From contig JAFVSL010000003.1 of assembly GCA_017503725.1 (NCBI GenBank), positions 72,272 through 136,271 of the forward strand: a stretch of DNA of 64,000 nt, given 5' to 3'. This DNA comes from Alphaproteobacteria bacterium (GTDB lineage: Bacteria; Pseudomonadota; Alphaproteobacteria; Rs-D84). Under the pieces are notes generated by a model, which worked only from the letters and a program-made list of their open reading frames with translations, did not search any database and was not told the DNA's origin. A program made the position numbers and the translations under genes. The first letter of the stretch is position 1; every line of letters begins with the position of its first letter. Positions 17,888 through 44,445 of the stretch are shown here, piece by piece.

Positions 17888-17951
17888 AAAACTGCCGTGT
17901 TCATATGAACGCCGACAAATTATACATATATTTTTGCCCCGTGTCAAGTTT

Positions 17952-28736: not shown

Positions 28737-29159
28737 TTTTTGTATCGAAAAAAATACCGCCGTTGCCGGCGGTATTTCCGAATGCCCCGAAAGGAAGGAA
28801 AGGAGAAAAAGAAATTGGGCATTCTAAAAAAATGTTCTGGGGTCCACGGTCCAGAGGAGAGAGAATGTAGGAGGGAGTCTGAATCCCTGGACCCCACAGA
28901 TGCTTTCGCACCTGGTCATCGGCTTTGCTTCCTTTGACGAATCGAAATATAATACAGATATTTGCTTTTGTCAAGTGTTTTGTCAAAAAATTTTTTAGTA
29001 TTGTCATTTTTTTCTAAAAATTCCTAAAAAAAGCCCGAAATATCCCTAAAAACCTAGGAAATGGTACTTGTTGTATGAATTGGTGCCGGGGCATAAAATT
29101 TGTGGTGTGCTGGAACGTTCTGATGGATTCTGGCGAATATCGAAGAAGGAGAGAGAAAA

Positions 29160-29408
29160 ATGACCCACGAAGATGTATGGCGGGCAATAGAACGCTTTGC
29201 AACCGAACACGGTATGTCTTGTTCTGGATTGGCAAAGTGCAGTGGTTTGGACCCAACGACCTTTAATAAAAGCAAGCGTTGGTCCAAAGAAGGACAGCCC
29301 AGATGGCCGTCGACAAACAGTATTTCCAAAATTTTGTCGTCGACCGGGGCGCGAATCCAAGACTTTACCAAGTATATTGATTCGCCCCAGGATTCTGGAC
29401 GCGACTAA
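29160..29408 (+). CDS. small helix-turn-helix DNA-binding protein (phage-repressor-like N-domain)
   Basis: WRAIERFATEHGMSCSGLAKCSGLDPTTFNKSKRW HTH pattern; strong RBS GAAGGAGAGAGAAAAATG. Confidence 0.55.
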   Translation: MTHEDVWRAIERFATEHGMSCSGLAKCSGLDPTTFNKSKRWSKEGQPRWPSTNSISKILSSTGARIQDFTKYIDSPQDSGRD

Positions 29409-29490: not shown

Positions 29491-29928
29491 ATGGGGTATT
29501 GTATCTATATGCTATCGGGAATAAGAATCTTTTCAGACGATCAAATCTGGCGGCAAATTTTGTCCGAATTAAACGCCACGGTATTGGATGCGCCCACGGT
29601 AACGGATGTTGATATGGCAAATCTGGATATCTCGGCCCCGATCCATCCAATGGAATTAAAGGCGCGAATACTGTCGGCGACGGATAATTCGCGTTTGTTG
29701 GGCCAGATTTTTGGCACGCCAACAACGTTACCGTATATTCAGGGGAAATTGGTAATCGCACTTTATAAAAGTGGCGGTATGTCATCATCAGATTTGAAAC
29801 GTGCGCTGGGATATGCGGCGGACACATCTACGCATACGGTGGATACCGCGATTTATCAGTTGCGCCGAAAATTCGGTCGTGATTTTATTGTTACAAATAA
29901 TGGGGTATATAAACTTGGCCGGATATAA
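29491..29928 (+). CDS. hypothetical protein with OmpR/PhoB-type winged-helix C-terminal domain
   Basis: C-terminal THTVDTAIYQLRRKFGRDFIVTNNGVYKLG resembles a trans_reg_C winged helix; start uncertain. Confidence 0.45.
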   Translation: MGYCIYMLSGIRIFSDDQIWRQILSELNATVLDAPTVTDVDMANLDISAPIHPMELKARILSATDNSRLLGQIFGTPTTLPYIQGKLVIALYKSGGMSSSDLKRALGYAADTSTHTVDTAIYQLRRKFGRDFIVTNNGVYKLGRI

Positions 29929-30586
29929 GGTATTTTCTTTTGATAAAATCCCCAGCACCCAGGATGCTGCGCACGAATTAATTGCCAGCGGACACGGGGC
30001 AAATCGTACGGCGGTTGTTGCCCAGGCGCAAAGTGCGGGGCGGGGGCGTCATCGTCGTAAATGGGTATCGCATCACGGAAATTTGTACGTCAGTTTTATT
30101 TACGATTGTGATGTGCGTGATGGGCGCCTGGCGTATGCGGTGGCGGTGGCGGTGGCGGAAACGTTGGCGACATACGGCATCGCGCCAACAATTAAGTGGC
30201 CAAATGATATCTTGATTGATGGCAAAAAGGTTTGTGGAATTTTAATCGAATATTCTGGGCCCTATGTCATTGTGGGAATCGGTATAAATATTCAGACCAA
30301 CCCAACGGTACGCGAATATAAAACGACCAAGTTGGATAATTATACCCCAGGTTTATCGCCAAATGATTTGCTGGGGGAATTGATGCGCAATTTGGATAAA
30401 TGGCGTCGCACAGAATTTTCGGTTGTACGCGCACGCTGGATGCAGTTGGTTGAACATTTAAACAAAGATGTTCTGTACCAGGGGGCACCCGCCGAATTGA
30501 TTGGAATAAATGAAAACGGTGCACTGATTTTACGTCGCGATACACGGTATTTGTTGGTGTATGGTGATGAAATAACAATGCTGTAA
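29900..30586 (+). CDS. birA: biotin--[acetyl-CoA-carboxylase] ligase (class I, no HTH)
   Basis: GRGRHRRKW biotin-binding loop (GRGRRGRxW), KWPND motif; start uncertain (overlaps upstream gene by 29 nt). Confidence 0.75.
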   Translation: MGYINLAGYKVFSFDKIPSTQDAAHELIASGHGANRTAVVAQAQSAGRGRHRRKWVSHHGNLYVSFIYDCDVRDGRLAYAVAVAVAETLATYGIAPTIKWPNDILIDGKKVCGILIEYSGPYVIVGIGINIQTNPTVREYKTTKLDNYTPGLSPNDLLGELMRNLDKWRRTEFSVVRARWMQLVEHLNKDVLYQGAPAELIGINENGALILRRDTRYLLVYGDEITML

Positions 30587-30619: not shown

Positions 30620-30648
30620 TTGACATTTATTTAAAAATATGATATACT
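30620..30648 (+). promoter_or_regulatory. near-consensus sigma70 promoter (TTGACA-17-TATACT)
   Basis: Exact -35 hexamer, 17 nt spacer, TATACT -10; followed within 30 to 90 nt by two intrinsic terminators. Confidence 0.55.
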
Positions 30649-30674
30649 TGACACCATCAAAGACATAAATAATG

Positions 30675-30741
30675 CCCACAACAACTGTTGGGGATTTTTT
30701 TTGTCTGTTTTTTAGCCGCACATTTTTGTGCGGTTTTTTTT
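30675..30741 (+). terminator. tandem intrinsic terminators (CCCACAAC-loop-GTTGGGG-T8, then GCCGCACA-loop-GTGCGG-T8)
   Basis: Two GC hairpins each followed by T8 on the plus strand, lying between promoter and RBS of the hydrolase gene. Confidence 0.6.
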
Positions 30742-30775
30742 ATTTGTCACAAATCATATGGGGGGATTTTCAGAA

Positions 30776-31186
30776 ATGAATCTAAGACTGATAAAGAATC
30801 CAGACGAAACGAAAAAGTTATCATATCAAATTGCGCGTGTTGTTTATGCGGAAACATCCGCATCATCACTGACCGCGGTCGAGGCACTGGTATCAATGAT
30901 AAACAATGCATCACGTGCCAGCGGCAGAAGTTTCGCACAAATAATATCTGATACCGATATGTTTGAATCATTAAATGAAACATCCGTTCGTCACGAAATG
31001 TTATCGGTTCCCCCACTTTCACGCGGATTTCAAATGTGCTTGCGGGTTGTTGGTCGAATGCTGATGGGTGGGTTGCCGGATATGTGTCGTGGTGCAACAC
31101 GCTTTCATCACGGTGATGTAAATCCAGATTGGGCACGTTCACGTGGGTATATATTGGATATTGATGAATTACTGTTTTATTTATAA
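30776..31186 (+). CDS. SleB-like cell-wall hydrolase (Hydrolase_2 family), probable endolysin
   Basis: IARVVYAE...ALVSMINN...FHHGDVNPDWARSRGYI matches the SleB/Hydrolase_2 consensus; followed by holin-like gene. Confidence 0.6.
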   Translation: MNLRLIKNPDETKKLSYQIARVVYAETSASSLTAVEALVSMINNASRASGRSFAQIISDTDMFESLNETSVRHEMLSVPPLSRGFQMCLRVVGRMLMGGLPDMCRGATRFHHGDVNPDWARSRGYILDIDELLFYL

Positions 31187-31199
31187 GTGGAAATAAAAA

Positions 31200-31397
31200 A
31201 TGAACAAGTTTTACAAGGGCGGATTCCTAAGCGGCTATCGAACATATATTATGTCATCGGTTGGAATCTTGTCGGCGATTGCGGCCTATGCGGTCGGGGA
31301 CAGTGATATTTTCATAACACTGCAAAGTATTTTTACATTGGGTGGAATTTTCTTTTTACGCAAATCGAATGAACCAAAGGATAAATCAAATGGATAA
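31200..31397 (+). CDS. holin-like small membrane protein (2 TM)
   Basis: 65 aa, two hydrophobic helices, charged C-terminus, immediately after the hydrolase. Confidence 0.5.
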   Translation: MNKFYKGGFLSGYRTYIMSSVGILSAIAAYAVGDSDIFITLQSIFTLGGIFFLRKSNEPKDKSNG

Positions 31398-32046
31398 AGT
31401 TCCAGAAAAATTTTTAAACGAAGACGGTACATTAAATGCAGATGCATTGATGAAATCTTATTCAGAACTTGAACGCAAAATCGGAACAATGATAACGGTG
31501 CCGACCGATGGGTGTGATGAAAGTGTTCGTGCGCGCTTTAATCGCGCGATTGGTGTGCCGGAAACATCTGATGAATATCCAACAAATGAAATATTTGATG
31601 ATGAAAATTTGAAAAATAAATTTCACGAAATTGGATTAACATCAACCCAGGTTGAAAAAATTTATGATATTGCAAATGAATTTCTTGCACCTGTGATATC
31701 AGATTTATATAACACGCAAAATGAAAAAGATGCACTTGCAGAATTAAAAAACTTTTTCGGTGGAACGGAAAAAATGAATGATGCATTGCGTGCAATAGAT
31801 GCGTTTGGTAAAAAGTTTTTACCCGCCGATGCATTTGATGAACTGTGCTCCTCGCCCCAGGGAATCCAAGGGATTTATCGTATGATGCAATCAATGGAAC
31901 CAAATGTTGAAACCGAAAAAAATGAAATAAAAAATTTAACGGATTCAGATTTACGACGTATGATGCGTGATCCAAAATATTGGCGTGATGGCGATGCAGA
32001 ATACATACGCAAAATAGAAAATGGTTTTAAAAAATTATATTCATAA
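31393..32046 (+). CDS. putative phage scaffolding protein (T7 gp9 position)
   Basis: Acidic helical 218 aa protein immediately upstream of the capsid module; assignment by position and composition only. Confidence 0.4.
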
Positions 32047-32155
32047 GAAAAAAAATTCACTTTCTTCTTTACTAATTTTTGATATTCATATAAAATACCA
32101 AGTAAGAACAAAACAAATTTGTTCTATCCAAAAAATAGAAGAGAAGGAGAGAAAT

Positions 32156-32635
32156 ATGGTCTTTGGCCTGTTCAAAAAATCTGCAAAGAAAGCAGTTGTA
32201 AAACCAGCCGCAAAACCGGTTGCAAAAAAAGAACCTGCAAAGAAAGCGCCAGCAAAGAAAGTTGCTGCAAAAAAGCCAGCTGCAAAACCAGTTGCAAAGA
32301 AAGCACCTGCGAAAAAAGTAGTTGCAAAACCAGTTGCAAAGAAAGCACCTGCAAAAAAAGTAGTTGCAAAACCAGTTGCGAAAAAAGCACCTGCAAAAAA
32401 AGTAGTTGCAAAACCAGTTGCGAAAAAAGCACCAGCGAAAAAAGTAGCGGTTAAAAAACCAGTTGCGAAAAAAGCACCAGCGAAAAAAGTAGCGGTTAAA
32501 AAACCGGTTGCAAAAAAAGCACCTGCGAAAAAAGTAGTTGCAAAACCAGCAGCGAAAAAAGTTGCAGTTAAAAAAGTTGCTGCAAAACCAGTTGCAAAGA
32601 AAGCGTGTGCAAAAAAATGTGCAAAAAAGAAATAA
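32156..32635 (+). CDS. histone H1-like / AlgP-like lysine-alanine-rich repeat protein
   Basis: About 20 tandem [14 protein letters not shown] repeats encoded by 45 nt DNA repeats; RBS GAGAAGGAGAGAAAT. Confidence 0.65.
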
Positions 32636-32853
32636 TATAATTTCTTAACGCTATTAACCCGAACGATTGTTCGGGTTTTTCTTTTGAAAATTTCAGTCAG
32701 ATGAAATATACAGTCTGACTGAATTTTTTATTGCGGACAAGTCTTGCCACCCCGCATTTATTTTATGTTTACGGCGCATTTATTGCATAACCGTTTCATA
32801 AAATCGTCGCGCAAATTGCGCATTTTTCATTTAACCAAACAAAGGAAATAAAT

Positions 32854-33681
32854 ATGTCCGTTTCAATTGATCAGGTCTTCGTAAAGCAATTCGAGGCCGA
32901 TGTTCATTTGGCCTATCAACAGATGGGCACAAAACTGCGTTCAACCGTTCGCAGCAAATCAGGTGTTGTTGGCGCATCTACCACATTCCAAAAGGTTGGT
33001 CGTGGCACCGCCAGCACAAAATCACGTCACGGTATTGTACCGGTAATGAATTTGAACCACGAACCTGTGGAATGTATGTTAACTGATTACTATGCGGGTG
33101 ATTGGGTTGATGCATTGGATGAATTAAAGGTAAATATTGATGAACGCCGTGTTGTTGCGTCTGCTGGTGCGTATGCCCTGGGGCGCAAGACAGACGAATT
33201 GATTATCGATGCAATGAACACATCAACATTGTCTGTTGGTGATTATACAACCGGCTTGACCAAAGATTTGATTTTATCAGCGGTTGAAATTTTAAACACA
33301 AACGATGTCCCAGATGATGGTCGTCGCTTTGCGGTTATTGGCGTACACCAGTGGAATGAACTGTTGTCGATGGATGAATTTGTATCGGCCGATTATGTTG
33401 GTGATGCAAATCCATTGGTAAATGGTTTTGAGGCAAAAAAATGGTTGGGTATTACATGGGTTCTGCATAACGCATTGCCGGTATCCCAAACGAACCGAGA
33501 TTGCTTTATCTATCACGCGTCCAGCGTTGGGCACGCCTGTGGCCAGGAAGTAAAAACAGACATTTCTTGGCACGGTGAACGTGCGGCGCATTTCATCAGC
33601 AACAGTATGTCCCAGGGTGCCGTTTTAATCGACAATGACGGTATCGTTCGTGTCAAATGTTCTGATGCGCCCGCTGCCTAG
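32854..33681 (+). CDS. phage major capsid protein, T7 gp10-like (short form)
   Basis: TKLRSTVRSKSGVVGASTTFQKVGRGTA parallels T7 gp10 TSRHMVRSISSGKSAQFPVLGRTQAAY; 275 aa. Confidence 0.7.
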   Translation: MSVSIDQVFVKQFEADVHLAYQQMGTKLRSTVRSKSGVVGASTTFQKVGRGTASTKSRHGIVPVMNLNHEPVECMLTDYYAGDWVDALDELKVNIDERRVVASAGAYALGRKTDELIIDAMNTSTLSVGDYTTGLTKDLILSAVEILNTNDVPDDGRRFAVIGVHQWNELLSMDEFVSADYVGDANPLVNGFEAKKWLGITWVLHNALPVSQTNRDCFIYHASSVGHACGQEVKTDISWHGERAAHFISNSMSQGAVLIDNDGIVRVKCSDAPAA

Positions 33682-33719
33682 GTGTAAAAAACAACCACTT
33701 TAACCAAAGGATAAATCTT

Positions 33720-33953
33720 ATGGCATTTCAAAATAAAAATCTGTCGGTGATTGCGTATGCAAATGGCTTTACATTGTGGCATTATGCATCTGCAACAGAA
33801 ACTATTGCGACGATTTCTGCGACCGGCTTTTTCAATGATGTTAAAACATTGATGAATATTGGTGATGTTGTAATTATCAACGCGTCTGATAACACCGCAA
33901 TCAAGAAAATAAACATCACGGCCAGCAACGTCACAACCGGTGCATTGGCATAA
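33720..33953 (+). CDS. hypothetical small protein in capsid-tail module
   Basis: 77 aa ORF with RBS AAGGATAAAT; function unknown. Confidence 0.4.
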   Translation: MAFQNKNLSVIAYANGFTLWHYASATETIATISATGFFNDVKTLMNIGDVVIINASDNTAIKKINITASNVTTGALA

Positions 33954-34026
33954 TAATTTATTATCGTCAAATGGTGGTGCAATTTTGCACCACCAATATT
34001 TTTTATTAACAACAGTGGGGGCAATT

Positions 34027-34545
34027 ATGCTTACAAAAATAGATTTATGTTCAATGGCGCTATTAAAACTGGGGGAACAACCAATTCAGTCTTTCAGTGA
34101 CGATACCGCCACCGCACAGTTGGCACGAACCTTATTTGATCCCATAACAGATGCATTGATTGCGTCGCATCCGTGGCGTTTTGCAACCCGTCAATTAACA
34201 TTGACCAAAAATTCAGATGGTGATTTCCTGATTCCATCAGATGTTTTACGGGTACTGAAATCGGGCGGTGATATTGTTGGTAACAAGATTGTTGCACCAA
34301 CAGATAACCTGACAATAACGGCCTGTACGCGTGTTGGGGTTGATATGTTTCCGGGCTATTTTGTGTCATTGGTGGCGACAAAATTGGCGATGGAATTTTG
34401 TATCCCGCTTTCTGGTGACCAGACCGTGTTCAGAATGCTGGCGGCGCTTTATGAATCAGAATTACAGTCTGCAAAATTCATCGACAGCACAACCGCACCC
34501 GGTGCAAAAATAGACAATTTTTCGTTAATAAATGCACGGTTTTAA
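34027..34545 (+). CDS. tail tubular protein A, T7 gp11-like
   Basis: LLKLGEQPIQSFSDDTATAQLARTLFD...SHPWRF parallels T7 gp11 ILASIGEPPVSTLEGDA...RGWTF. Confidence 0.65.
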   Translation: MLTKIDLCSMALLKLGEQPIQSFSDDTATAQLARTLFDPITDALIASHPWRFATRQLTLTKNSDGDFLIPSDVLRVLKSGGDIVGNKIVAPTDNLTITACTRVGVDMFPGYFVSLVATKLAMEFCIPLSGDQTVFRMLAALYESELQSAKFIDSTTAPGAKIDNFSLINARF

Positions 34546-36272
34546 TGGGGGGCAAAATGGCAAATTTTATTAAAACACAGAATTCTTTTGCCCACGGTGT
34601 GGTGTCATCTGAGTTTTTTACGCGTGATGATATTAACGGATTGTCGTGCCTTGAAAATATGGATGTTTTGCCGGGGGGCGGTCTGACGCGTCGTCGCGGA
34701 TTAGCACATATTGCGAATTTACCGGGTGTTGCACGCCTGGTGCCATTTTCTGTATCGGAAACAGAAAACTATGTCTTGGCAATAACATCGGTGCATATAA
34801 TTATTTATTCTGGTACGCAGATGATGGGCGACTTGTTTGCGCCCTGGGGGGCGGACGATTTGTCGCGCCTGCAATACGCCCAGCGTTTTGACACAATGAT
34901 ATTTGTGCACCCAGATTATCGTCCGCAAATTTTGAAAAAAACCGAAACAGGCTTTGAATTGGGTGACTTTATATTTGCGCGCAATGATGCCGATATGTCG
35001 ATGAATATTCCGTTTATGCGGTTCGAGGATACGTCTGATATAAAAATTTCAGTCAGCACCAGTGACCGAGGCAACAACTATGCTAAATTCACGACCAGTT
35101 CAGATTTCTGGACCCCTGAATATGTGCGAACACGCTTTATGCTGTTGGACCGTCAGTGGATAATTGATGAATACATCAGTCCGACCGAGGTTATCGCATA
35201 TGTCAACGGTACATACACCGCGCCCGGCGCGCCGGTAACCGATTGGTTTGAATCCGCGTTCAGCACCCCGCGTGGCTGGCCGTGCAGTATAACATTTCAC
35301 CAAGATCGATTGGTTTTTGGTGGTTCGCGTTCCTATCCGGCGGGCGTATGGATGTCCCGTGTTGGTCAACATAAAAACTTTAACGTTGGCACCGGTCTGG
35401 ATGACGAAGCAATTTTTATAACCCTGCTGTCCCAGCAGCGACAACAAATTTGTACCGTGGTCAGTGGCGATAATCTTCAAATTCTGACCACTGATGGCGA
35501 ATGGGCGATTTCCAGCAAACCATTAACCCCATCGGTCGTTGATATAAAACAGCACACGTCCGTTGGATCTTGTGCATCAAGATATTTACCACCCCAGAAG
35601 ATAGAAGACGCCACCATATTCGTGTCCAAGACAATGCGTGATATTCGCGAATTGTCTTTGGATGATTTGGGTGAAAATTATAACGCAACTGATTTATGCG
35701 CATTTGCCAAGCATTTGATGACATCGCCGGTGGATATGGCGTACAACGATGCAACCCGGCAATTATTCGTGGTCCAATCAGACGGTAATATGGCTGTCTT
35801 GAACCAGAATGGGGCATTGGGGATATCGGCGTGGGCCGAATACAAAACATATGGCAAATTTATATCTGTAACGGTTGTAGACGGGAAAACATATGTCGTA
35901 TCGCTGCGTGATGATGCGTATAACATTGAATGTTTTTCAGATTCTGTGATGCGGGATGCAGATAAATATGATTTTGCATACCAGGCGGCGTCTTTGCCAT
36001 TTCGTGTGTCTCATCATAATGTGTCGCGTTTGCGCATTCGCCGGGTGTCACTGCGCCTGCTGAATACTAAATCAGTATTTATAAATGGCGCGCGTGCCAC
36101 ATTGCCAAATGAAATTTATTCAGAAAATCATCCGGGTTATTCGGGTGACGTGTCTGTAAATTTGCTGGGTGGATGCCTATCGTGTTTGTCGCCATATTGG
36201 ACCATACACGGAAACGAGCCCCAGCCAATAACGGTTTTATCTGTTTGTGTGTCCGGCGGATACAGTGTTTAA
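34545..36272 (+). CDS. tail tubular protein B, T7 gp12-like (shortened)
   Basis: N-terminus FIKTQNSFAHGVVSSEFFTRDDINGLSCLENMDVLPGGGLTRRRG parallels T7 gp12 IKNLKGGISQQPDILRYPDQ...ETEGLQKRP. Confidence 0.65.
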   Translation: MGGKMANFIKTQNSFAHGVVSSEFFTRDDINGLSCLENMDVLPGGGLTRRRGLAHIANLPGVARLVPFSVSETENYVLAITSVHIIIYSGTQMMGDLFAPWGADDLSRLQYAQRFDTMIFVHPDYRPQILKKTETGFELGDFIFARNDADMSMNIPFMRFEDTSDIKISVSTSDRGNNYAKFTTSSDFWTPEYVRTRFMLLDRQWIIDEYISPTEVIAYVNGTYTAPGAPVTDWFESAFSTPRGWPCSITFHQDRLVFGGSRSYPAGVWMSRVGQHKNFNVGTGLDDEAIFITLLSQQRQQICTVVSGDNLQILTTDGEWAISSKPLTPSVVDIKQHTSVGSCASRYLPPQKIEDATIFVSKTMRDIRELSLDDLGENYNATDLCAFAKHLMTSPVDMAYNDATRQLFVVQSDGNMAVLNQNGALGISAWAEYKTYGKFISVTVVDGKTYVVSLRDDAYNIECFSDSVMRDADKYDFAYQAASLPFRVSHHNVSRLRIRRVSLRLLNTKSVFINGARATLPNEIYSENHPGYSGDVSVNLLGGCLSCLSPYWTIHGNEPQPITVLSVCVSGGYSV

Positions 36273-36297
36273 TCAATACAACAAAAAGGAATTTATT

Positions 36298-36645
36298 ATG
36301 GGACAACTTGTATCAGATGTTAGTGAAATCTTGGATTACAAAGATGAAAAGAAACAGGCAAAATCTGCCCGTCAGGAAATCTTGAAACAGATGGCCGCAG
36401 ACGATGCCGAAAAAACAAACCTGGTCAAAAAGGTGTTGGCGACCCAGCGTGCAAAATATGGCGCATCGGGCGTGTCGTCGCGCGGACTCAGCCAGGGGGC
36501 GGTCCTTGCGCGGTTGAAATCAGAAACCGAACAACCATACACTGAAAAACGCAACGCGAATTTGAAAAAATTAAAATCAACACGTGCCAAGAAACCTAAT
36601 TTATTAAAAACAATATTGTCGCGCTTTGATGACTTAGTCGGCTAG
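36298..36645 (+). CDS. hypothetical basic virion/packaging-associated protein
   Basis: 116 aa K/R-rich ORF between tail tube B and fiber genes. Confidence 0.4.
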   Translation: MGQLVSDVSEILDYKDEKKQAKSARQEILKQMAADDAEKTNLVKKVLATQRAKYGASGVSSRGLSQGAVLARLKSETEQPYTEKRNANLKKLKSTRAKKPNLLKTILSRFDDLVG

Positions 36646-36661
36646 GAATAGGGGGATAATT

Positions 36662-37210
36662 ATGCATAAAATCTCTTACATAGCAGATGGTGTCACGACT
36701 GAATTTGAATTTGCATTTCCATTTTTTCAGGCGGCAGATATCCGCGTCGCCAAGAACGAGGTCATTTTAACCACTGATGAATATTCAGTTGTTGAAAATG
36801 TATCTTTTGATGGTGGACGTGTTGTGTTTAATGTTGCGCCCACCGCGGACACACGTATTGATATCTATCGCGTTGTCGCATTGTCGCGCGTCATAGATTA
36901 TCAGCCAACCGCAAAAATAGACCCAGAACATCTAAATTCGGACTTTAATTTTTTAATCGAGGCCCTAAAAGACCTTCACGCACCCGATGTTGATATCGAG
37001 GCCTGGCGTAACACGCACACAAACGTGGTGAATTTCTTGGAATATACGAACAGTCTAATCCAAGATAAATTAACCGGTGGCGGTGTGCTGGGGATTTATC
37101 GCAATTTAATAGCGGTGCTGGATAACGCATTACCAAATCTGATTAACGACTATGGATACATTACGGATTCGGCCGACGACGCCACGTGCGACGATTACGG
37201 ATTATTGTAA
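36662..37210 (+). CDS. tail fiber N-terminal (tail-attachment) domain only, T7 gp17-like
   Basis: YIADGVTTEFEFAFPFFQAADIRV parallels T7 gp17 YQLDGSNRDFNIPFEYLARKFVVV; only 182 aa, no distal receptor-binding domain. Confidence 0.55.
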   Translation: MHKISYIADGVTTEFEFAFPFFQAADIRVAKNEVILTTDEYSVVENVSFDGGRVVFNVAPTADTRIDIYRVVALSRVIDYQPTAKIDPEHLNSDFNFLIEALKDLHAPDVDIEAWRNTHTNVVNFLEYTNSLIQDKLTGGGVLGIYRNLIAVLDNALPNLINDYGYITDSADDATCDDYGLL

Positions 37211-37214
37211 TTTT

Positions 37215-37793
37215 ATGGATACGTGGAACCATACCCTGGGGCAGACAACACCCACACACCACCGTAAAATAATGGAATTTCTGGTGGATGTTCTGGGGGA
37301 CGATATGCACCGGGGACTGCTGATGGCGTTTCGACATTCGGGCAAATCGACCGTTGTCGGGATTTTTGCAGCGTGCACATTGTACCTGTTCCCGTGTACG
37401 CGCATACTGATTTTGTCGGCGCACACGACATTGGCATCGCGAATGGTCGGGCATATCAGACATATCTTGGAAAATCATCCCTGGTGTGCGGATTTATTGC
37501 CCACATCGCGTCGTGATTGGTCGTCGGGACACATTACTATCAACCGACCAATAGGCATACGCGAACCATCTGTAATATGCCAGGGCATCCACGGCAACAT
37601 CACCGGAATGCGCGCAGATTTAATAATCTGCGATGACGTAGAGGTGCCAAACACATCAAACACCCCGCAAAAGCGTGAAAATCTGCGTGAAAGATTACGT
37701 GAACTGGATTTTATCTTGTCGCCCACGGGCACGATGATTTACATCGGTACACCACACACAATGGATACGATTTATCGTACCAGCGATGACTAG
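37215..37793 (+). CDS. terminase large subunit, N-terminal ATPase part (split gene)
   Basis: Walker A FRHSGKST, Walker B LIICDDVE, coupling motif IYIGTPH; ends at a stop without a nuclease domain. Confidence 0.65.
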   Translation: MDTWNHTLGQTTPTHHRKIMEFLVDVLGDDMHRGLLMAFRHSGKSTVVGIFAACTLYLFPCTRILILSAHTTLASRMVGHIRHILENHPWCADLLPTSRRDWSSGHITINRPIGIREPSVICQGIHGNITGMRADLIICDDVEVPNTSNTPQKRENLRERLRELDFILSPTGTMIYIGTPHTMDTIYRTSDD

Positions 37794-38446
37794 GCGTTAT
37801 CTTCGGCTTTTACCGAACTGATAAACGTGCGCAACCGCCCCAACAGTTCGTTTCCTGCATCCCCAAACATCGGCAGGTATGTTTCATATTCTGGCATATC
37901 GGCCTGGATTTCTGCGCGTGCACGTTCATCCAGTGGTGCGTTAATAATTTGATTCGCCGTATCCCACAATTGATACGCGCGATATGTTTTTGTAACGACC
38001 GCCCATTGATTTTGCATATCCGGATGCTTGTCCAGTGCATCGTGAATTGCGTTTGCCCATTCTTCGCCAAATCTGCGTACCACATTAAGGCCACGTATAC
38101 GATTCAGGCCGTCTGGATCGGGGGTAAAAGAATTTAACACAGATTGTAATTCAGAAATATCTTTCTGGGACAAAATGGTGTCGGTCACACTGGATTGTGT
38201 CATCAATCCACCATATGGAATCAATTCTGGTTCAATGGAATCCATTGGTGTTTTGCCACTGCGCAGATTTTCAATATGCCGGATAAGCATTTTACCGGTT
38301 GGCATTTCGCGCAACTCTTTGATTACGTCATCGGTGGCCTCGTCTATAAAGACTGGGTTAATCGCAGACCATCCGCCAACGATAACGTGTTCCTGGCGAT
38401 AAAGGTTTAACAATCTTTGTGCCGTGGCGGCGATACGTGCTTTCAT
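37790..38446 (-). CDS. hypothetical protein
   Basis: 218 aa ORF in the block interrupting the terminase. Confidence 0.45.
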   Translation of the reverse strand: MKARIAATAQRLLNLYRQEHVIVGGWSAINPVFIDEATDDVIKELREMPTGKMLIRHIENLRSGKTPMDSIEPELIPYGGLMTQSSVTDTILSQKDISELQSVLNSFTPDPDGLNRIRGLNVVRRFGEEWANAIHDALDKHPDMQNQWAVVTKTYRAYQLWDTANQIINAPLDERARAEIQADMPEYETYLPMFGDAGNELLGRLRTFISSVKAEDNA

Positions 38447-38480
38447 AATGTGCCTCTCTCTCCGGTATTATGTTGATGAA

Positions 38481-39488
38481 TTATTCCATCACAATCATAA
38501 CAACTTTGTGCATTGTTTGCGCGTTAATTTTTTCTTCTGGGCTGGATATTTGACCGTATATTTTCCCTTTGGAATCTTGACGTACACTAACAATTTGCGC
38601 GTTGACGGTTGTTTCTGAATCCAATGCATCAAAGTCCGTATCAATGCATACCGCCAAATCGCCCGCCACAATTGGTGCATCTACATCGGCAAATACGTAT
38701 GATTTTTCAGGGATAAATCCGCCCAAGCGCTTTGAATTTGGCATAACCGCGTAAATACCACTGCGGCCCTCTAATGACATTGGGGCAACAATCATCGTTT
38801 TGTCAGATTTTTTAAACGCAATTGATTTACCAGACGGCATACCGAACACCGGGACCAGTTTTTTGCGTGCACTGTCATACAATTTTGCGCCATACAAGCC
38901 GCCACTCATATCAATGCCAGATAATGGGTTGCCCGGTTCCAGTACGGATTTAACGCGTTCCTTGACCTTGTTAATCTGTTTGTTTAATTCGCCGCTTTTA
39001 TACAGGGTTGCGATTTTATCAAACATACTTTCGACCGTCATCGCGAACGATTGTGCCAATGGTTCAATTTCATTTTCATAGATTTCGCGTTGTCCAACCT
39101 CGATTTTATGATACACAGACAATGTCATACCGGCATCTTTGGCGGCACGTGCGATAGTTTTTCCAGATTGCTGGCGAATTTTGCGCAGACCACTGCCGAA
39201 AATTTTCAGGCCACCATCTTCGTTATCATTCAGACGGCGTTTGATTTCGGTTTGCCATTGTTCTGCAACCTCGTCAGATTCTTTGATGAAAATGTCGGAC
39301 AGTTTGCACCCCAAGATATTACAGATATTCAGCAACTGTTTCTGGTTCAAGCGGCGTACACCCTTTTCAATTTTTGAAACCGCGGACAGGGACAAACCCG
39401 CGCGTCGCGCCAGTTCCGTCATCTTCATCCCATTTTTCAGGCGGATGTTTCTGATATTATTTGGAAAAATAATTTCTTCTTGGGCCAT
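38481..39488 (-). CDS. XRE-family transcriptional regulator with two HTH domains and CI/LexA-like C-terminal domain
   Basis: Two Cro/C1-type HTH segments (MTELARRAGLSLSAVSKIEKG; IARAAKDAGMTLSVYHKIEVG) plus C-terminal beta-rich domain. Confidence 0.6.
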   Translation of the reverse strand: MAQEEIIFPNNIRNIRLKNGMKMTELARRAGLSLSAVSKIEKGVRRLNQKQLLNICNILGCKLSDIFIKESDEVAEQWQTEIKRRLNDNEDGGLKIFGSGLRKIRQQSGKTIARAAKDAGMTLSVYHKIEVGQREIYENEIEPLAQSFAMTVESMFDKIATLYKSGELNKQINKVKERVKSVLEPGNPLSGIDMSGGLYGAKLYDSARKKLVPVFGMPSGKSIAFKKSDKTMIVAPMSLEGRSGIYAVMPNSKRLGGFIPEKSYVFADVDAPIVAGDLAVCIDTDFDALDSETTVNAQIVSVRQDSKGKIYGQISSPEEKINAQTMHKVVMIVME

Positions 39489-39563
39489 TGTGCAACTCCT
39501 TAAAAACTATAATCTTGACAAAATAATAGTCAATTTTTAAGGCTTGCGCAAGTAAATAATCAC

Positions 39564-41120
39564 TTACAGTGGCATATCATCCGGGATTGCATCGATATCA
39601 ATTGGCGTTGGTGAAAATTCAGATCCATCCAATGGTATGCTGGCGGTTGGTTGTGATGTGACGTTTTCACCACGTGTGTCAAATTCATCCGGCAGATTGT
39701 CGAACAAACTGTAATCGCCAAAGAATGCGGTGCGTACGGTTTCCGGACGTCCGTGACGGTTTTTTCCGATGATAATATCGGCCTTGCCACGGGATTGTTC
39801 GTAACGTTTTTGCCACGATTCCACCATTGCGGAATTTGTTGTGTTTGAAATTCTTTCTGATGGATTACGGTTCGCCAGATAGTATTCTTCGCGGTACGTA
39901 AACATAACAATGTCGGCGTCTTGTTCAATAGATCCAGATTCACGCAAGTCCGCCAATTGTGGACGTTTGTCATCGCGCTGTTCAACGCTACGTGACAACT
40001 GTGACAGGGCAATTACCGGCACATCCAATTCCTTGGCCAGCATTTTTAGCCCTCGTGTAATTTCGGAAATTTCTTGGACACGGTTGTCGCTGCGCTTGCC
40101 ACCGGGGGACGTCATCAATTGCAGATAGTCCACCACAATCAACGCAATTCCACCATATTTCCGTGCCAGGCGTCTTGCACGTGTGCGCATCATCGGTACC
40201 GACATACCCGGCGTATCATCAATGCACAGTGGAATCTTGCTGATTGCGTCGGCGTATTGTGTCATTTTAAGCATATCTTCATCCGTCAGGTTTCCTTCAC
40301 GCATTGCGGATGCGGGCACCTTGGACTGGGATGATAAAACACGTGCCGCTAATTGGGAATGCGACATTTCAAGACTGAAAAATACGACGGCGCCCTTGTA
40401 ATTTTTATTGGCCGTGCCATAGTGTATTGCATTTGCCGCATTAAACGCGATATTCATCGCCAACGTGGTTTTACCCATCGCCGGACGACCCGCTACGATA
40501 ATTAAATCCGAATGGTGCAGACCACTGATTGATTTATCCAGCGCCGTCAGTCCCGTTGTCAGACCCGATAATTGCCCGTCGGCCTTGTACGCGGTTTCGG
40601 CTTCCCTTAATGCGGCCTGTAATGCGGTTGCGATTGAAACAACGTCACGTTCGGACGAACCCGTGGTTGCCATATCGAATAATTTCTGTTCGGCAACCTC
40701 TATTTGTCGATTAACTGGATTGTCCAGGTCTTCGACAAATGCGCCATCCATAATATCCTGGGCCAGGTTGATTAACTGTCGTCTTTGTGCATGTTCGTAT
40801 ACGATGCGACCATATTGTTCAACGTTAACAACGGTTGCCCCCGCACCCGATAATTGGGTCAGGTAATCCACACCACCCACCGATTCCAAGACCCCCTGTT
40901 GGTCCAGATAGTTTTTAGCGGTAATAATATCGAACGGGATACCGGCGGCAAATTGACGTTCCGCCAGTTTATAAATTTCCTGGTGTGCGGGATGCGAAAA
41001 GTGTTCCGCATTCAAGAATTCTGACACACGTTCCAACGCGCGATTATTCATCAACACCGCGGCCAGTACGGCCTGTTCTGCTTCCAGATTGGTTGGCAAA
41101 GTCTTAGGGGTAAAATCCAT
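39564..41120 (-). CDS. dnaB: replicative DNA helicase DnaB
   Basis: DnaB N-domain NLEAEQAVLAAVLMN, Walker A AGRPAMGKTT, RecA-like core; start set at MDFTPKTL; acidic C-terminal tail of about 60 aa. Confidence 0.8.
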   Translation of the reverse strand: MDFTPKTLPTNLEAEQAVLAAVLMNNRALERVSEFLNAEHFSHPAHQEIYKLAERQFAAGIPFDIITAKNYLDQQGVLESVGGVDYLTQLSGAGATVVNVEQYGRIVYEHAQRRQLINLAQDIMDGAFVEDLDNPVNRQIEVAEQKLFDMATTGSSERDVVSIATALQAALREAETAYKADGQLSGLTTGLTALDKSISGLHHSDLIIVAGRPAMGKTTLAMNIAFNAANAIHYGTANKNYKGAVVFFSLEMSHSQLAARVLSSQSKVPASAMREGNLTDEDMLKMTQYADAISKIPLCIDDTPGMSVPMMRTRARRLARKYGGIALIVVDYLQLMTSPGGKRSDNRVQEISEITRGLKMLAKELDVPVIALSQLSRSVEQRDDKRPQLADLRESGSIEQDADIVMFTYREEYYLANRNPSERISNTTNSAMVESWQKRYEQSRGKADIIIGKNRHGRPETVRTAFFGDYSLFDNLPDEFDTRGENVTSQPTASIPLDGSEFSPTPIDIDAIPDDMPL

Positions 41121-41145
41121 GTCAAAATCCTTTTCCTTAACGCCA

Positions 41146-41985
41146 ATGGTATATGAAAAAAATGCTTTTTCAATGCCTTTTTTATCGGGATATAAAATAT
41201 TGAAAATTCCGATAGTTGACGCCAATGGTACGCCCGCGTGGCCGGAACTTTTCCCGATTGAAAAGGTTGCCCAGATGCGGCAAATCGTCGGCCCCCGGCA
41301 TTTTTCAGCACAAATGATGCTGGAATTTGTGCCACCTGAACGTATTCGTCTGGACCCGGGGCAAATACATTTCTATGAATATATGCTGGATATTCATTCG
41401 GCACGTCTGGGGCCGCATTTGATAACGGGTGCGTCTGTGTATTGGGATCCGTCCACCGGCCGCCATAAATCAGACCACAGTGTTTGTGTTCTGATATATC
41501 GTGATGATAAAAATCATAATGTTTTTATACACGATGTTATGTATATGACGGTTTCTGATACCGAAACCCACCCCTTGAATGCCCAGTGTGAACGGGTGAT
41601 TGATTTTATGCACCGATACGGTATGCGCCGAATAACAATCGAGACAAATGGACTGGGCAATGCATTGCCGGAAATAATGCGCGATGTGGCGGTGCGTCGG
41701 GGTCAAAACATATACGTAAATAAAATCACTAATAACCGGAACAAGTCCGACAGAATCTTGGATGCGATTGAACCCCTGCTGACCTCGGGGCACCTGTATG
41801 CCAATATGCGTGTGCAACATACGCCACTTTTGTCGGAAATGTTGGGTTGGTCACCCGTTGGCGGGGTGGGGCACGATGACGGCTTGGACGCGATTGCGGG
41901 TGCGATTGCGCAAACGCCGATTGTCCTGCGTCCGTCCGGGGGGATGTCCCGTCCAGTTTATGCAAATACAAATTTCACAATATAA
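41146..41985 (+). CDS. terminase large subunit, C-terminal nuclease part (split gene)
   Basis: RNaseH-like nuclease motifs VYWDPSTGRHKSDHSVCVLI and GHDDGLDAIAGAI; start uncertain (41119-41173). Confidence 0.65.
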   Translation: MVYEKNAFSMPFLSGYKILKIPIVDANGTPAWPELFPIEKVAQMRQIVGPRHFSAQMMLEFVPPERIRLDPGQIHFYEYMLDIHSARLGPHLITGASVYWDPSTGRHKSDHSVCVLIYRDDKNHNVFIHDVMYMTVSDTETHPLNAQCERVIDFMHRYGMRRITIETNGLGNALPEIMRDVAVRRGQNIYVNKITNNRNKSDRILDAIEPLLTSGHLYANMRVQHTPLLSEMLGWSPVGGVGHDDGLDAIAGAIAQTPIVLRPSGGMSRPVYANTNFTI

Positions 41986-42011
41986 AACAACACAAACAAA
42001 AAGGATAAAAT

Positions 42012-43241
42012 ATGCAATCTAATTTATTGCAAATGTACAAACGTGCGCTGGATATGCGCGATCCGTGGTTGCGTCGTTGGGCGGATGCACGCCGGTATAC
42101 AATGCCGGAAACCGATGACGACACGGCAACGCTGTTTGATGCAACCGCAATGGATGCGGTTGATAATCTGGCGGCATCACTTTATACATTATTGACCCCA
42201 CCGGAATCATTGTGGCTGAACCTGGTCCCGGAAAGTGATTTGTCACCCGATGCAGGCACCGCGACGGATGTGTTGCGTGCAAACTTAAATGATTCTAATT
42301 TTTATACGACCGTGCACCAATGTTATTTGGATTTGGTCACGTTGGGAACAGCGTGTTTGTTTATGGCGGAAAATCCGATTGGTGCGTCATCTGCATTTTC
42401 GTTCACCGCGATTCCAATGTCAGATATTGCAATTTTACCAAACGCGGTATTTCACACCACATCAATGTCCGCGCGTGATGCGATGGAAAAATATCCGACA
42501 TGGACGGTGCCGGCAAACCTGCGTGATACAATAAAACAAGACCCCGACACCCCAATTAAACTGGTACAGAGTTTGGTTGGAACTGAATTTACAGCGTGGT
42601 TGGATGCCGGTGGCGACATTGAAAACAACATTGTTGCAACGGGAACATTTGAAACAAATCCGTATTTGATTTTCCGTTGGTCGGTGACGTCCGGCGAAAT
42701 TTATGGGCGTGGCCCGGTCTTGCGTGCGTTGCCAGATATTAAAACCGCGAACAAGGTTGTGGAATTAGTCTTGAAAAACGCGACAATATCCGTATCTGGT
42801 ATCTGGATGGCGGACGATGACGGCGTGATAAATTTGAATAACATCAGCCTGACGCCGGGTGCGATTATACCAAAGGCGGTTGGTTCGTCGGGCCTGACAC
42901 CATTGACCAGTGGTGCAAACTTTGATGTGTCCCAGATTATTTTAAAAGATCTGCGGGAACGCATCCGTCACGCATTGTTGGCGGACCGGTTGGGCCTGTT
43001 AAGCGAAAAAGAAATGACCGCAACCGAGATTATGGCCCGTAATTCCGATATGATGCGAATCTTGGGTGCGACCTATGGTCGATTACTGCACGAATTTATA
43101 AGGCCATTGTGCGAACGCGGTTTGCAGATTTTATCACGCCGTGGTGTGATTGAACCAATAACCCTGCACGGGGATGCAGAATTAAAATACATTGCACCAA
43201 TTGCACAAATGGTTGCGCTGGAATCAATTGCGGGGGTGTAA
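42012..43241 (+). CDS. phage portal (head-to-tail connector) protein, T7 gp8-like (shortened)
   Basis: MYKRALDMRDPWLRRWADARRYTMPE...AVDNLAASLYTLLTPPESLWLNL parallels T7 gp8 YERLKNDRAPYETRAQNCAQYTIP...GLNNLASKLMLALFPMQTWMRL. Confidence 0.65.
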   Translation: MQSNLLQMYKRALDMRDPWLRRWADARRYTMPETDDDTATLFDATAMDAVDNLAASLYTLLTPPESLWLNLVPESDLSPDAGTATDVLRANLNDSNFYTTVHQCYLDLVTLGTACLFMAENPIGASSAFSFTAIPMSDIAILPNAVFHTTSMSARDAMEKYPTWTVPANLRDTIKQDPDTPIKLVQSLVGTEFTAWLDAGGDIENNIVATGTFETNPYLIFRWSVTSGEIYGRGPVLRALPDIKTANKVVELVLKNATISVSGIWMADDDGVINLNNISLTPGAIIPKAVGSSGLTPLTSGANFDVSQIILKDLRERIRHALLADRLGLLSEKEMTATEIMARNSDMMRILGATYGRLLHEFIRPLCERGLQILSRRGVIEPITLHGDAELKYIAPIAQMVALESIAGV

Positions 43242-43244
43242 TAA

Positions 43245-43439
43245 ATGTCGGAAAATATCGCACAAGATTTTGCGCGCACATTTTGCACCCCATCGGGTGC
43301 GCGTGTGATTGAGCATTTACGCAAAATAACTATTGAACGGGTACTGGGGGCGAACGCGACGGACGCAGAATTGCGCGGGGTTGAGGCCCAACGTGCCCTT
43401 GTTCACCAAATTGAAAATATGATAGAACGGGGGAAATAA
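43245..43439 (+). CDS. hypothetical small protein
   Basis: 64 aa ORF tightly packed after portal gene. Confidence 0.4.
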   Translation: MSENIAQDFARTFCTPSGARVIEHLRKITIERVLGANATDAELRGVEAQRALVHQIENMIERGK

Positions 43440-43441
43440 AA

Positions 43442-43699
43442 ATGACGACGCAACCCAGTGCCATTGGCATCCTAGATTTTTTACGCGACAGTTGGTTTTT
43501 AATCGCCTTTATTGCGGGGTGTGTCTACTGGGTTGCGCGCCAGGATTCGTCCGTTGCGGAACTGGAACGTGTTGATGCCCGTATAACATCGCTTGAAAAT
43601 CGCACAACGGTCTTGGAAACGGGTATCGGCCAAATTCAAATAAAAATAGACGATATCAAAGAAGACCTGAACCTGATAAAAGGCGCAGTTATTAAATAA
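43442..43699 (+). CDS. hypothetical TM + coiled-coil protein (holin/spanin-like)
   Basis: One TM helix followed by heptad coiled coil; 85 aa. Confidence 0.4.
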   Translation: MTTQPSAIGILDFLRDSWFLIAFIAGCVYWVARQDSSVAELERVDARITSLENRTTVLETGIGQIQIKIDDIKEDLNLIKGAVIK

Positions 43700-43715
43700 A
43701 AGTTTATCTAAGCGA

Positions 43716-43966: not shown

Positions 43967-43994
43967 GCGAAAAACAATGAAAGGAGTTGAACAA

Positions 43995-44432: not shown

Positions 44433-44445
44433 GTAGGGGGGGAAA

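Follow-up and report, generated by a model that had tools for sequence, protein, structure and literature searches.

A block of about 15 kb in the chromosome of an alphaproteobacterium holds a complete minimal set of phage genes for a head, a short tail, DNA packaging and lysis, and none that would serve self-replication or integration. It lies in a 64,000-nt stretch (hereafter, the window) of the genome of an Alphaproteobacteria bacterium (GTDB Rs-D84; assembly GCA_017503725.1, contig JAFVSL010000003.1, positions 72,272-136,271). We interpret the block, with a probability of roughly 0.6, as the domesticated, vertically inherited remnant of a temperate T7-like podovirus that has become fixed in a clade of gut and rumen Alphaproteobacteria. 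It would now be a podovirus-type viriform resembling a gene transfer agent (GTA), kept by selection for particles and lysis. Domestication is well supported; transfer of DNA is what we infer from the gene set.

Should particles be made, the block would represent a second, independent origin of a GTA-like system in Alphaproteobacteria, this one from a T7-like podovirus, and an unrecognized route of gene flow in gut microbiomes. The hosts occur widely in metagenomes from the rumen and from pig, poultry, deer, termite and human guts. What makes the anatomy unusual is that an essential host replication gene lies antisense inside the terminase gene, with overlapping start and stop codons, and that both halves of the terminase are under selection. 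This provides a natural test case for split packaging motors and for the coupling of particle production to replication shut-off. No description of the element was found in the literature searched. New here are the T7-type ancestry in Alphaproteobacteria, the terminase split by a helicase operon, the truncated CI repressor, and the histone-like gene together with late genes that appear to be gated by terminators.

Conservation and inheritance of the block

The block runs from orf82 (or, by linkage, from a candidate small RNA) on the left to p85 on the right. Its left part comprises orf82, orf140, birA, a promoter with terminators, and genes for a lysin, a holin, a scaffold, a histone-like protein, the capsid and p77. 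The right part continues with tail tubes A and B, p115, in some lineages a fibre gene, terL-N (for the N-terminal part of the large terminase, TerL), the antisense genes hyp218, XRE and dnaB, and then terL-C, portal, Bbp19 and p85.

Synteny and intactness hold for this block in at least nine GTDB species and on about 60 more contigs from metagenomes or IMG/VR. An earlier reading of the same DNA made without database searches (the sequence-only reading) had proposed to look for synteny at the birA/rpsD locus, and it is beside birA that the block recurs. Compared loci and contigs, whose sources include IMG/VR, GTDB genomes and a public assembly collection, are given L-numbers, and W denotes the window locus. 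The same architecture is seen in L006, L007, L009-L012, L014, L016, L017, L152 and 58 IMG/VR contigs, and the blocks of other species hold full-length open reading frames (ORFs) on contigs of up to 1 Mb. All 58 of these close IMG/VR matches are the element with its dnaB insertion, filed as proviruses by virus-prediction pipelines. In the public assembly collection the exact capsid sequence falls in 36 indexed blocks; 22 contigs were read, and the same architecture surrounds it at the places shown. The capsid of one relative occurs in 444 indexed blocks of that collection, on contigs longer than 1 Mb. Homologue surveys of capsid, TerL-N and TerL-C each covered the best 120 clusters, and those of the capsid are all 84-92% identical.

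Among the 80 best matches of a DnaB scan of the genome collection, every GTDB genome listed with a DnaB at least 71% identical (L009-L017) carries the element. DnaB relatives of at most 50% identity come from other Alphaproteobacteria, which lack it and have no element genes within 10 kb. The gene birA adjoins the left side of the late genes in every locus that extends that far. Linkage to birA is kept across species and linkage to rpsD is not, so that of the two housekeeping flanks named in the sequence-only reading one is conserved.

All genes of the block, both terminase pieces included, are under purifying selection. Between W and L002, two close strains (dS 0.02-0.2), the ratio of nonsynonymous to synonymous substitution rates (dN/dS) is 0 for capsid, 0.008 for portal, 0.025 for terL-C, 0.04 for terL-N and 0.06 for tube B, with 0.016 for dnaB and 0.066 for birA; values range from 0 to 0.07 over genes and from 0 to 0.05 for the capsid. 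Pairwise distances over 40 complete loci average 0.157 for capsid and 0.197 for portal versus 0.228 for DnaB, which served as the host marker and is physically linked to the block. They correlate with the DnaB distances at r = 0.76-0.79 for capsid and portal, 0.87 for tube B and 0.865 for XRE (overall range 0.64-0.87). Among block-bearing lineages DnaB diverges by up to 33%. G+C content at third codon positions is host-like except in the lysin, scaffold and histone-like genes. Synteny, intactness, purifying selection and co-divergence with DnaB together bear out the suggestion that the block is domesticated rather than decaying.

The opposite view, of an ordinary prophage in decay, or an artefact of assembly, that hitch-hikes beside the essential genes birA and dnaB, is hardly tenable. 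It would account for the interrupted terminase gene and for the missing integrase, replication genes and distal fibre, and one lineage, L015, really does decay. There, the first 85 capsid codons are joined to the final 32 of terL-N, the portal is deleted and dnaB is inverted; over positions 600-5700 the structural genes are largely deleted, with dnaB, XRE, hyp218 and terL-C intact and dnaB translationally coupled to terL-C. Hitch-hiking, however, cannot give dN/dS values of 0 to 0.07, full ORFs, invariant motifs and conserved hairpins across dozens of lineages. An assembly join, which the sequence-only reading had listed as a way to be wrong, is ruled out, since different studies have yielded more than 60 independent contigs with these junctions. 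The decay of L015 indicates that cells can in principle do without the phage-derived genes, which are actively kept in the other lineages.

It is also improbable that the block is still mobile, either as a defective phage or satellite mobilized by a helper or through homologous recombination via birA and dnaB. In keeping with mobility, IMG/VR pipelines call the block viral, the head may hold the whole of it, flanks differ between species, and its orientation is inverted in L006 relative to L007. Counter to this, it is without integrase or recombinase, a replication initiator and att repeats, its linkage to birA is constant, and it encloses a host-type dnaB. Its distances track those of DnaB, its composition is host-like, and none of the copies found lay on a contig resembling a phage or plasmid.

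The inversion between L006 and L007 involves the whole orf82-p85 block relative to its flanks (trmA on one side, UPF0102/DUF4223 on the other), which indicates that the block behaves as a unit in chromosomal rearrangements. A 26-nt repeat between the 3' end of birA and the sequence after p85 was considered as an attachment site and rejected: at 77% identity it is at the level of shuffled sequence, and it has no counterpart in seven species.

Gene content and the split terminase

Genes were assigned by profile searches with Pfam, PHROGs and NCBIfam, supplemented by PDB, PADLOC and Rfam. Those outside the terminase region are as follows (HTH, helix-turn-helix; TM, transmembrane; aa, amino acids).

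29160..29408, plus strand: orf82, HTH-only protein (Pfam HTH_26, E 7e-4), 87-96% identical between species
29509..29928, plus strand: orf140, with sub-threshold Trans_reg_C and HTH_24 matches that recur in three orthologues
29900..30586, plus strand: birA, biotin-protein ligase, a housekeeping gene (TIGR00121, 154 bits against a cutoff of 83)
30776..31186, plus strand: endolysin, SleB/cell-wall-hydrolase-like (phrog_938, E 4e-8; Pfam Hydrolase_2, E 0.002, below the curated cutoff)
31200..31397, plus strand: holin candidate, 65 aa, with two hydrophobic/TM segments, named from sequence features and position beside the lysin
31390..32046, plus strand: T7 gp9-type scaffold (PF05396, E 7e-9, above cutoff)
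32156..32635, plus strand: histone-H1/Hc2-like polycationic protein with AKKPA repeats (PF07382 HC2, E 1e-12; NF038053, E 5e-11)
32854..33681, plus strand: major capsid protein (PF19821, E 3e-73; phrog_3437, E 2e-73)
33720..33953, plus strand: p77, small conserved protein (phrog_18004, E 2e-11)
34027..34545, plus strand: tail tubular protein A, gp11-like (phrog_394, E 3e-33; PF17212, E 3e-5)
34545..36272, plus strand: tail tubular protein B, gp12-like (phrog_376, E 4e-82)
36298..36645, plus strand: p115, basic coiled-coil protein in the gp13/gp14 position (weak match to phrog_418, internal virion protein, E 0.014)
36662..37210, plus strand: fibre N-terminal (tail-attachment) domain plus about 80 aa, 182 aa in all (phrog_1640, E 2e-14; PF03906, E 1e-4)
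42012..43241, plus strand: portal, T7 gp8-type head-tail connector, 409 aa (PF12236, E 2e-84)
43245..43439, plus strand: Bbp19-like small phage protein (PF25181, E 2e-9)
43442..43699, plus strand: p85, N-terminal TM segment and coiled coil, XhlA-like (weak XhlA matches, E 0.004 and 9e-4)

Profile searches confirmed all the head, tail and packaging genes that had been named from sequence: scaffold, capsid, tubes, fibre N-terminal domain, split terminase and portal. The lysis genes fared less evenly. The proposed SleB-like hydrolase is an endolysin by phrog_938, with a SleB-type match below threshold, and the holin is a candidate from sequence features only, the 65-aa protein being without a match in profile searches. 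The protein p85, the last conserved gene product in L006, L007 and L152, is a candidate lysis accessory.

By profile, the capsid belongs to the PF19821 family, the HK97-fold lineage of small T7-like podoviruses. The histone-like gene lies between scaffold and capsid in every species and encodes 97-159 aa; orthologues from nine species have an N-terminal MAFTFLK and a C-terminal CAKKK in common. Its place in the head module suggests a role in DNA condensation or co-packaging. The fibre gene occurs in only about 40% of lineages. At the left, every full locus has orf140, a candidate regulator of the late genes with a weak winged-helix signal of OmpR/PhoB type at its C-terminus.

The absence of RNA polymerase, DNA polymerase, primase and integrase was read correctly at the outset: none occurs among the window's ORFs of at least 130 aa and its annotated genes. 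Phage RNA polymerase and replication genes were likewise not found in the flanks of related loci, and profile searches gave no integrase or recombinase domain, primase or rep gene in or near the block. Neither a tape measure nor other long-tail genes were detected in the block, and PADLOC returned no defence-system match beyond generic HTH. The absence of gp14-16 holds: nothing like gp15 or gp16 is in the locus, and only p115, which by its weak match may be a minimal internal virion protein, follows tube B. The statement that the cluster has no replication or early genes has to be withdrawn, since dnaB, a regulator with two HTH domains and hyp218 lie inside the terminase, and a CI-derived HTH protein is encoded to the left of birA. 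The only replication gene in the block is the host-type dnaB.

The terminase region consists of two plus-strand pieces separated by a 3.3-kb segment (37790-41120) that holds a minus-strand operon of dnaB, XRE and hyp218.

37152..37793, plus strand: TerL-N, RecA-like ATPase core of a T7-type large terminase, a stand-alone ORF (phrog_38, E 2e-41)
37790..38446, minus strand: hyp218, 218 aa, last gene of the antisense operon, no family match
38481..39488, minus strand: XRE-family regulator, 335 aa, two HTH domains and an uncharacterized C-terminal domain (HTH_3, E 8e-20, two stretches)
39564..41120, minus strand: dnaB, replicative DNA helicase (NF006606 equivalog, 605 bits against a cutoff of 540)
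41119..41985, plus strand: TerL-C, remainder of the ATPase domain and RNaseH-like nuclease (phrog_38, E 4e-38; PF22530, E 5e-8)

TerL-N aligns to residues 49-215 of T7-type gp19 (PDB 8dgc/4bij; E 7e-22) and carries Walker A, Walker B and the C-motif, all invariant. Its AlphaFold2 model (pLDDT 80) has PhiV-1 TerL as its best Foldseek match (8dgc_E, E 1e-12, TM-score 0.74), followed by the ATPase domains of the P74-26, HK97 and T4 terminases. It is about 35% identical to the TerL of 2744 phage records, the majority of them from hosts of T7-like phages. For TerL-C a sequence search against PDB reached T7-type TerL only at E 0.09, and a fold search was needed. Residues 80-265 of its AlphaFold2 model are confident and RNaseH-like, with 8dgc_E again the best match (E 5e-11), followed by the nuclease domains of HSV, P22, RB49, Sf6 and SPP1; the nuclease motifs are invariant. 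The catalytic motifs of both pieces are invariant in all lineages aligned (10 to 44 sequences per alignment). Many of the first 75 residues of TerL-C are invariant too, yet they are not confidently folded in the model of TerL-C alone. This fits a missing part of the ATPase domain that folds only against TerL-N.

The split is present in every close homologue examined. The best 120 TerL-N clusters all have 186-221 aa, and those of TerL-C 279-288 aa, bar one 236-aa entry and one variant of 402 aa. In the last case (L152:8228-9436) TerL-C is longer by about 120 aa in an otherwise identical architecture. A comparison of the pieces with the TerL of Pelagibacter phage Hodr was uninformative and was set aside; Hodr TerL belongs to another TerL family. 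We found no precedent for, or description of, a naturally split TerL in the literature searched. From alignments and models, a non-covalent two-chain terminase is the most likely state.

It is very improbable that the gene is instead rejoined in producer cells, whether by programmed excision of the 3.3 kb (as with the skin element in sigK) or through an intron or intein. Such rejoining would suit two pieces that occupy neighbouring stretches of the TerL profile (phrog_38 positions 272-459 and 468-702) with almost nothing missing, and an interruption lying antisense, a feature of some elements that are excised during development. The junctions, however, have no direct or inverted repeats, and there is no recombinase in or near the block. 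No room is left for an intein or intron, as the terminase stop and start codons at the junctions each run into the corresponding codon of an inserted gene, and in all lineages both pieces have conserved stop and start codons of their own.

These overlaps are exact, with zero spacer at either end of the antisense insertion. In 37/66 loci the stop codons of TerL-N and hyp218 overlap by 4 nt (CTAG), and in all of the approximately 50 intact loci examined the dnaB ATG and an in-frame TerL-C ATG form one palindromic CATG, which places the TerL-C start at 41119. A dnaB promoter, TTGAAA-17-TATACT, is embedded on the opposite strand in the first codons of TerL-C and is nearly leaderless. Of eight genes tested, only TerL-C has constrained synonymous sites, in codons 2-21, over this promoter. 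In most species the dnaB -10 box is about 9 nt from the ATG (window 41118-41175), apparently leaving almost no leader; in the window lineage an 18-nt insertion gives dnaB a Shine-Dalgarno sequence. A possible internal promoter for terL-C inside dnaB (40825-40854, a single consensus match) was discarded: it is not conserved, and dnaB has no synonymous-site constraint.

The embedded helicase is of the alphaproteobacterial chromosomal, or host, type by its profile scores; it also falls under the cutoff of the phage_DnaB model TIGR03600. XRE is 71-88% identical between intact loci, and hyp218 has no match in Pfam, PHROGs, NCBIfam, PADLOC or PDB. In L026 (6179-9334), a metagenome-assembled genome of an outgroup alphaproteobacterium that lacks the element, about 1.1 kb separates rpsD from dnaB; the window has about 3.6 kb between these genes, with terL-C to p85 in the interval. 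This proximity hints that the phage landed beside dnaB rather than that dnaB entered the phage. In the termite-gut locus L013 (170-4800) a 692-aa ORF stands between terL-C and dnaB. Survival of terL-C there and in L015 could reflect a role of its own.

Ancestry and relation to known systems

The closest entries in the phage collection are MT838907, a 5-kb human-faecal fragment with a capsid 62% identical, and Pelagibacter phage Hodr, the closest cultured relative (capsid 45% and portal 32% identical). IMG/VR holds relatives with capsids 57-68% identical (L153, L154, L161, L163, L165, L169-171, L187, L189, L191 and others), which by their gene content appear to show the ancestral state. They have a single, unsplit TerL of 498-510 aa, a portal of 505-512 aa versus 409 aa in the window, and contiguous portal, Bbp19, scaffold and capsid genes, and they are without dnaB, XRE and hyp218. 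Homologues of p115 sit 3' of tube B, and Bbp19-like homologues adjoin the portal gene, in both L161 and L153; L153 also has an endolysin homologue at the equivalent position. Right after the capsid the relatives have an ORF of 85-90 aa, where tblastn gives p77-like matches. The histone-like gene is not in the few relatives examined: scaffold and capsid lie about 20 nt apart in L151, and in L153 and L161 only a small ORF would fit between them.

The relatives also carry a divergently oriented CI-type repressor of 207-210 aa, with HTH_26 and Peptidase_S24 domains. To its HTH domain orf82 is 64% identical in L161 (E 1e-32) and 45% in L153 (E 2e-21). By this homology orf82 is a CI-type repressor reduced to its HTH domain, the S24 autocleavage domain having been lost. 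Because the relatives carry the full CI/S24 repressor homologous to orf82, the ancestor would have been a temperate T7-like podovirus. T7-like phages had been thought, in the sequence-only reading, not to integrate. That premise is mistaken: T7-like pelagiphages integrate (bioRxiv 10.1101/410191), LUZ100 has temperate features (PMC10134795), and the present relatives carry CI/S24 repressors.

The relatives likewise undo the argument that uniform shrinkage of the structural proteins reflects selection for a minimal particle. The proteins are roughly 70-88% of T7 length, close to the 70-80% first given. In the relatives the capsid has 274-277 aa, the scaffold 227-266, tube A 189-218 and tube B 626-634, and the window capsid, scaffold and tube A are of normal size for their own families; only the portal is clearly short, by about 100 aa. 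The apparent shrinkage is an artefact of comparison with T7 itself.

Temperate T7-like podoviruses (HTVC019P-type pelagiphages, LUZ100, L153, L161) thus share with the block structural families, local gene order and homology to a CI-type repressor. They differ in having an unsplit TerL, a full HTH and S24 repressor, larger portals, early or replication regions and long fibres (in L161 a collagen-repeat protein of 802 aa), and in not being fixed at one host locus.

With respect to recognized classes, the block is T7-like in its gp8, 9, 10, 11, 12, 17 and 19-type morphogenesis genes, and it falls outside Autographiviridae in lacking a single-subunit RNA polymerase with replication genes and gp14-gp16. 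It is not an inducible temperate prophage, having no integrase or att repeats and an orf82 that is HTH only, without S24. Nor is it a satellite of the phage-inducible chromosomal island (PICI) or capsid-forming PICI kind, as it has no integrase, primase or rep gene and has its own tube A and B genes. As in GTAs and other viriforms, it is a chromosomal, phage-derived structural cluster without genes for self-replication or integration that is vertically inherited (by a DnaB marker linked to the block) and under purifying selection. Host control and release by lysis are predicted from a sigma-70 promoter, terminators, the CI remnant, the XRE and winged-helix candidates, and the lysin and holin-like genes. 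Its structural genes match PF05396, PF19821, PF17212, PF03906, PF12236 and PF22530, which sets it apart from the RcGTA-like family (Rhodogtaviriformidae).

Members of that family share a head-tail cluster of HK97-type siphovirus origin. Elements of the RcGTA type (Rhodobacter, Caulobacter) resemble the block in being chromosomal, vertical, phage-derived clusters for head, tail, packaging and lysis without replication or integration genes, in being under purifying selection in an alphaproteobacterial clade, and in lacking proteins for cytoplasmic injection. The present element, in contrast, is T7-like, with gp8/9/10/11/12/17N/19 types and a short tail, and its architecture has no homology to theirs; it has a two-piece terminase around dnaB, a histone-like gene and possibly a large head, and we know it only as genes. 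A further likeness is host-type transcription with antitermination control, which is likely in the present element; the Caulobacter GTA cluster is under activation and anti-termination control (bioRxiv 10.1101/2023.11.12.565669).

Further comparisons can be drawn outside the RcGTA type. The Bartonella GTA (BaGTA) works together with run-off replication, in which DNA is amplified from an origin of phage descent. It is similarly a domesticated particle system tied to a replication function in an alphaproteobacterium, whereas the present element has a host-type helicase antisense in its late operon, which suggests shut-off at most, and no sequence relationship to BaGTA. The FpGTA of Faecalibacterium prausnitzii is, according to its authors, the first GTA-like element of podovirus-like kind and also the first from the human gut (PMC12946183, 2026). 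Packaging of host DNA was shown experimentally there, from two separate loci in a Firmicute host (PMC12946183). Both systems belong to gut bacteria, have a presumed podovirus-like morphology and comprise structural and lysis operons without a complete prophage. Unlike the present element, FpGTA has not been described with a T7-type gene set or a terminase split by dnaB, a comparison made by description and not by sequence.

Late transcription and the function of the particles

The signals that would control the late genes, and the structured RNAs of the block, are the following.

30620..30648, plus strand: late promoter, TTGACA-17-TATACT with an extended -10 TG, near-consensus sigma-70 (11/12 matches)
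30675..30743, plus strand: two tandem intrinsic terminators in the interval between promoter and lysin (hairpins 30675-30693 and 30714-30735, each followed by a T-run)
32636..32853, plus strand: capsid leader, 218 nt, four hairpins (RNAalifold of 21 sequences: 30 pairs, 20 with compensatory changes)
28757..28940, minus strand: candidate small RNA of about 190 nt at the left block edge, three stem-loops and an intrinsic terminator

The late promoter lies right after birA, and its architecture TTGACT-N17-TATnnT is kept in 18 loci. The tandem terminators start about 25 nt 3' of it. Both hairpins form in 15/15 lineages folded, with differing stem sequences, and hairpin 2 has compensatory changes in 6/7 pairs. 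This layout suggests a late operon controlled by antitermination, by analogy with lambda PR'-tR'. Late control in lambda (PR', tR', Q) shares the strong constitutive promoter, the terminators within about 50-90 nt, the long operon for lysis and morphogenesis and the further internal terminators. It differs in that the present element has no Q-like protein or known RNA antiterminator that we could find, its mechanism being read from anatomy only. Candidates for an antitermination or activation function are orf140, XRE and hyp218. No conserved promoter was detected for terL-C to p85, which leads us to propose that transcription reads through the antisense dnaB operon.

Under the domesticated-podovirus interpretation, the late promoter would fire and its transcripts would stop at the tandem terminators, as at PR'-tR', until an antitermination or activation signal, perhaps from one of the three candidates, released them. 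An antiterminated polymerase could then read the whole late unit, including 3.3 kb antisense to dnaB-XRE-hyp218, and so reach terL-C, portal, Bbp19 and p85. Such read-through would also occlude the dnaB promoter inside terL-C. TerL-N (RecA core) and TerL-C (lid and nuclease) would reassemble non-covalently into a working terminase. If this works without a small terminase, heads would be filled with host DNA, possibly together with the histone-H1-like protein. Particles without gp15/gp16 ejection proteins, and often without a fibre, would depend for delivery on functions of the recipient, as in RcGTA. The missing ejection proteins, the frequent loss of the fibre and the missing small terminase fit such recipient-dependent delivery and packaging that is not sequence-specific.

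Several points weigh against this interpretation. The element is known from its genes alone, and particle formation, packaging and transfer are all deduced from them. The locus has no gp14-gp16 core or ejection proteins beyond the 115-aa p115 with its weak match, no full-length fibre, and no small terminase recognized among the cluster proteins. Its terminase is cut inside the ATPase domain, for which we found no precedent, and might be inactive in packaging. No antiterminator, whether a Q-like protein or a known RNA, was found among the block proteins or in Rfam, and read-through across 3.3 kb of antisense DNA is something that we infer. The embedded dnaB need not be the only replicative helicase gene; the 80 best matches of the DnaB scan included no second DnaB from the nine dnaB-embedding assemblies L009-L017. 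Finally, phage records of the capsid family are 31-37 kb long and the window capsid has the length of its relatives'; the head may be large enough for the whole block of about 15 kb, which would be atypical for GTAs.

The particle and lysis module may alternatively be kept for a purpose other than transfer, such as bacteriocin-like killing, a decoy for related phages or programmed lysis with release of the cell contents. We regard this as unlikely. The terminase might in that case persist only because heads have to be filled with DNA before T7-type tails can assemble on them, or because it serves elsewhere as a nuclease or ATPase. Purifying selection proves function and does not say which. The lack of ejection proteins, the frequent lack of a fibre and the split inside the ATPase domain of the terminase would all be accommodated, and in the decayed lineage L015 terL-C is the only one of the phage genes left intact, coupled to dnaB, which hints at a particle-independent role. 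Arguing for transfer instead, the catalytic and structural motifs of capsid, scaffold, portal and the two terminase halves have been retained jointly in about 60 loci, and a histone-like DNA-binding protein in the head module points to heads that contain DNA.

A stronger form of the domesticated-podovirus interpretation is doubtful. It would hold that a working podovirus-type GTA is universal in the clade, and that late transcription both makes the two-chain terminase and silences dnaB, by which the producer cell would be committed to replication arrest and lysis. The element would then be hard to lose, and the histone-like protein would be co-packaged.

The conserved leader RNAs and a small RNA with CU-rich loops are candidate new regulatory RNAs, and Rfam has no family for either. 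The capsid leader contains a terminator (32656-32677) and a conserved hairpin, TTCAGTCAGAT..GTCTGACTGAA, with a T-run at approximately 32692-32729; its 3' part has two more covarying hairpins and an invariant GCATAACC. It is not in the nearest phage-like relative, where the gap between scaffold and capsid is about 20 nt, and may be a new cis-regulatory RNA. A structurally conserved terminator (33972-33995) follows p77.

The candidate small RNA is transcribed divergently from orf82, from a promoter TTGACA-17-TATATT (28974-28946) that is kept in W, L006, L007, L010, L095, L126 and L140 whatever gene flanks it. RNAalifold gives 37 pairs, 7 with compensatory changes, and two invariant CU-rich loops, CUCCCUCCUACAUUCUCUCUCCUCU and UUUCUUUUUCUCCUUUCCUUCCUUUC, resemble anti-Shine-Dalgarno sequences. 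Two conserved direct repeats, TTTGTCAA, in the interval between the small RNA and orf82 (28966-28990) could be operators. Linkage suggests that the small RNA is part of the element.

The rest of the window is housekeeping, with parC, ligA, lpxI, trmA, recG, smpB, holB, rpoZ and others. Between p85 and rpsD (43950-44715) lie genes for two small cysteine-rich proteins of 160 and 89 aa without a family match; their hydrophobic N-termini suggest secretion, and L006, L007 and L152 have different genes at this place. At 15000-18500 the G+C content is 0.36-0.38 versus about 0.45. This stretch, which holds a NERD-domain gene, small unknown ORFs, tRNA-Glu and tRNA-Asp, may be a small island unrelated to the particle cluster.

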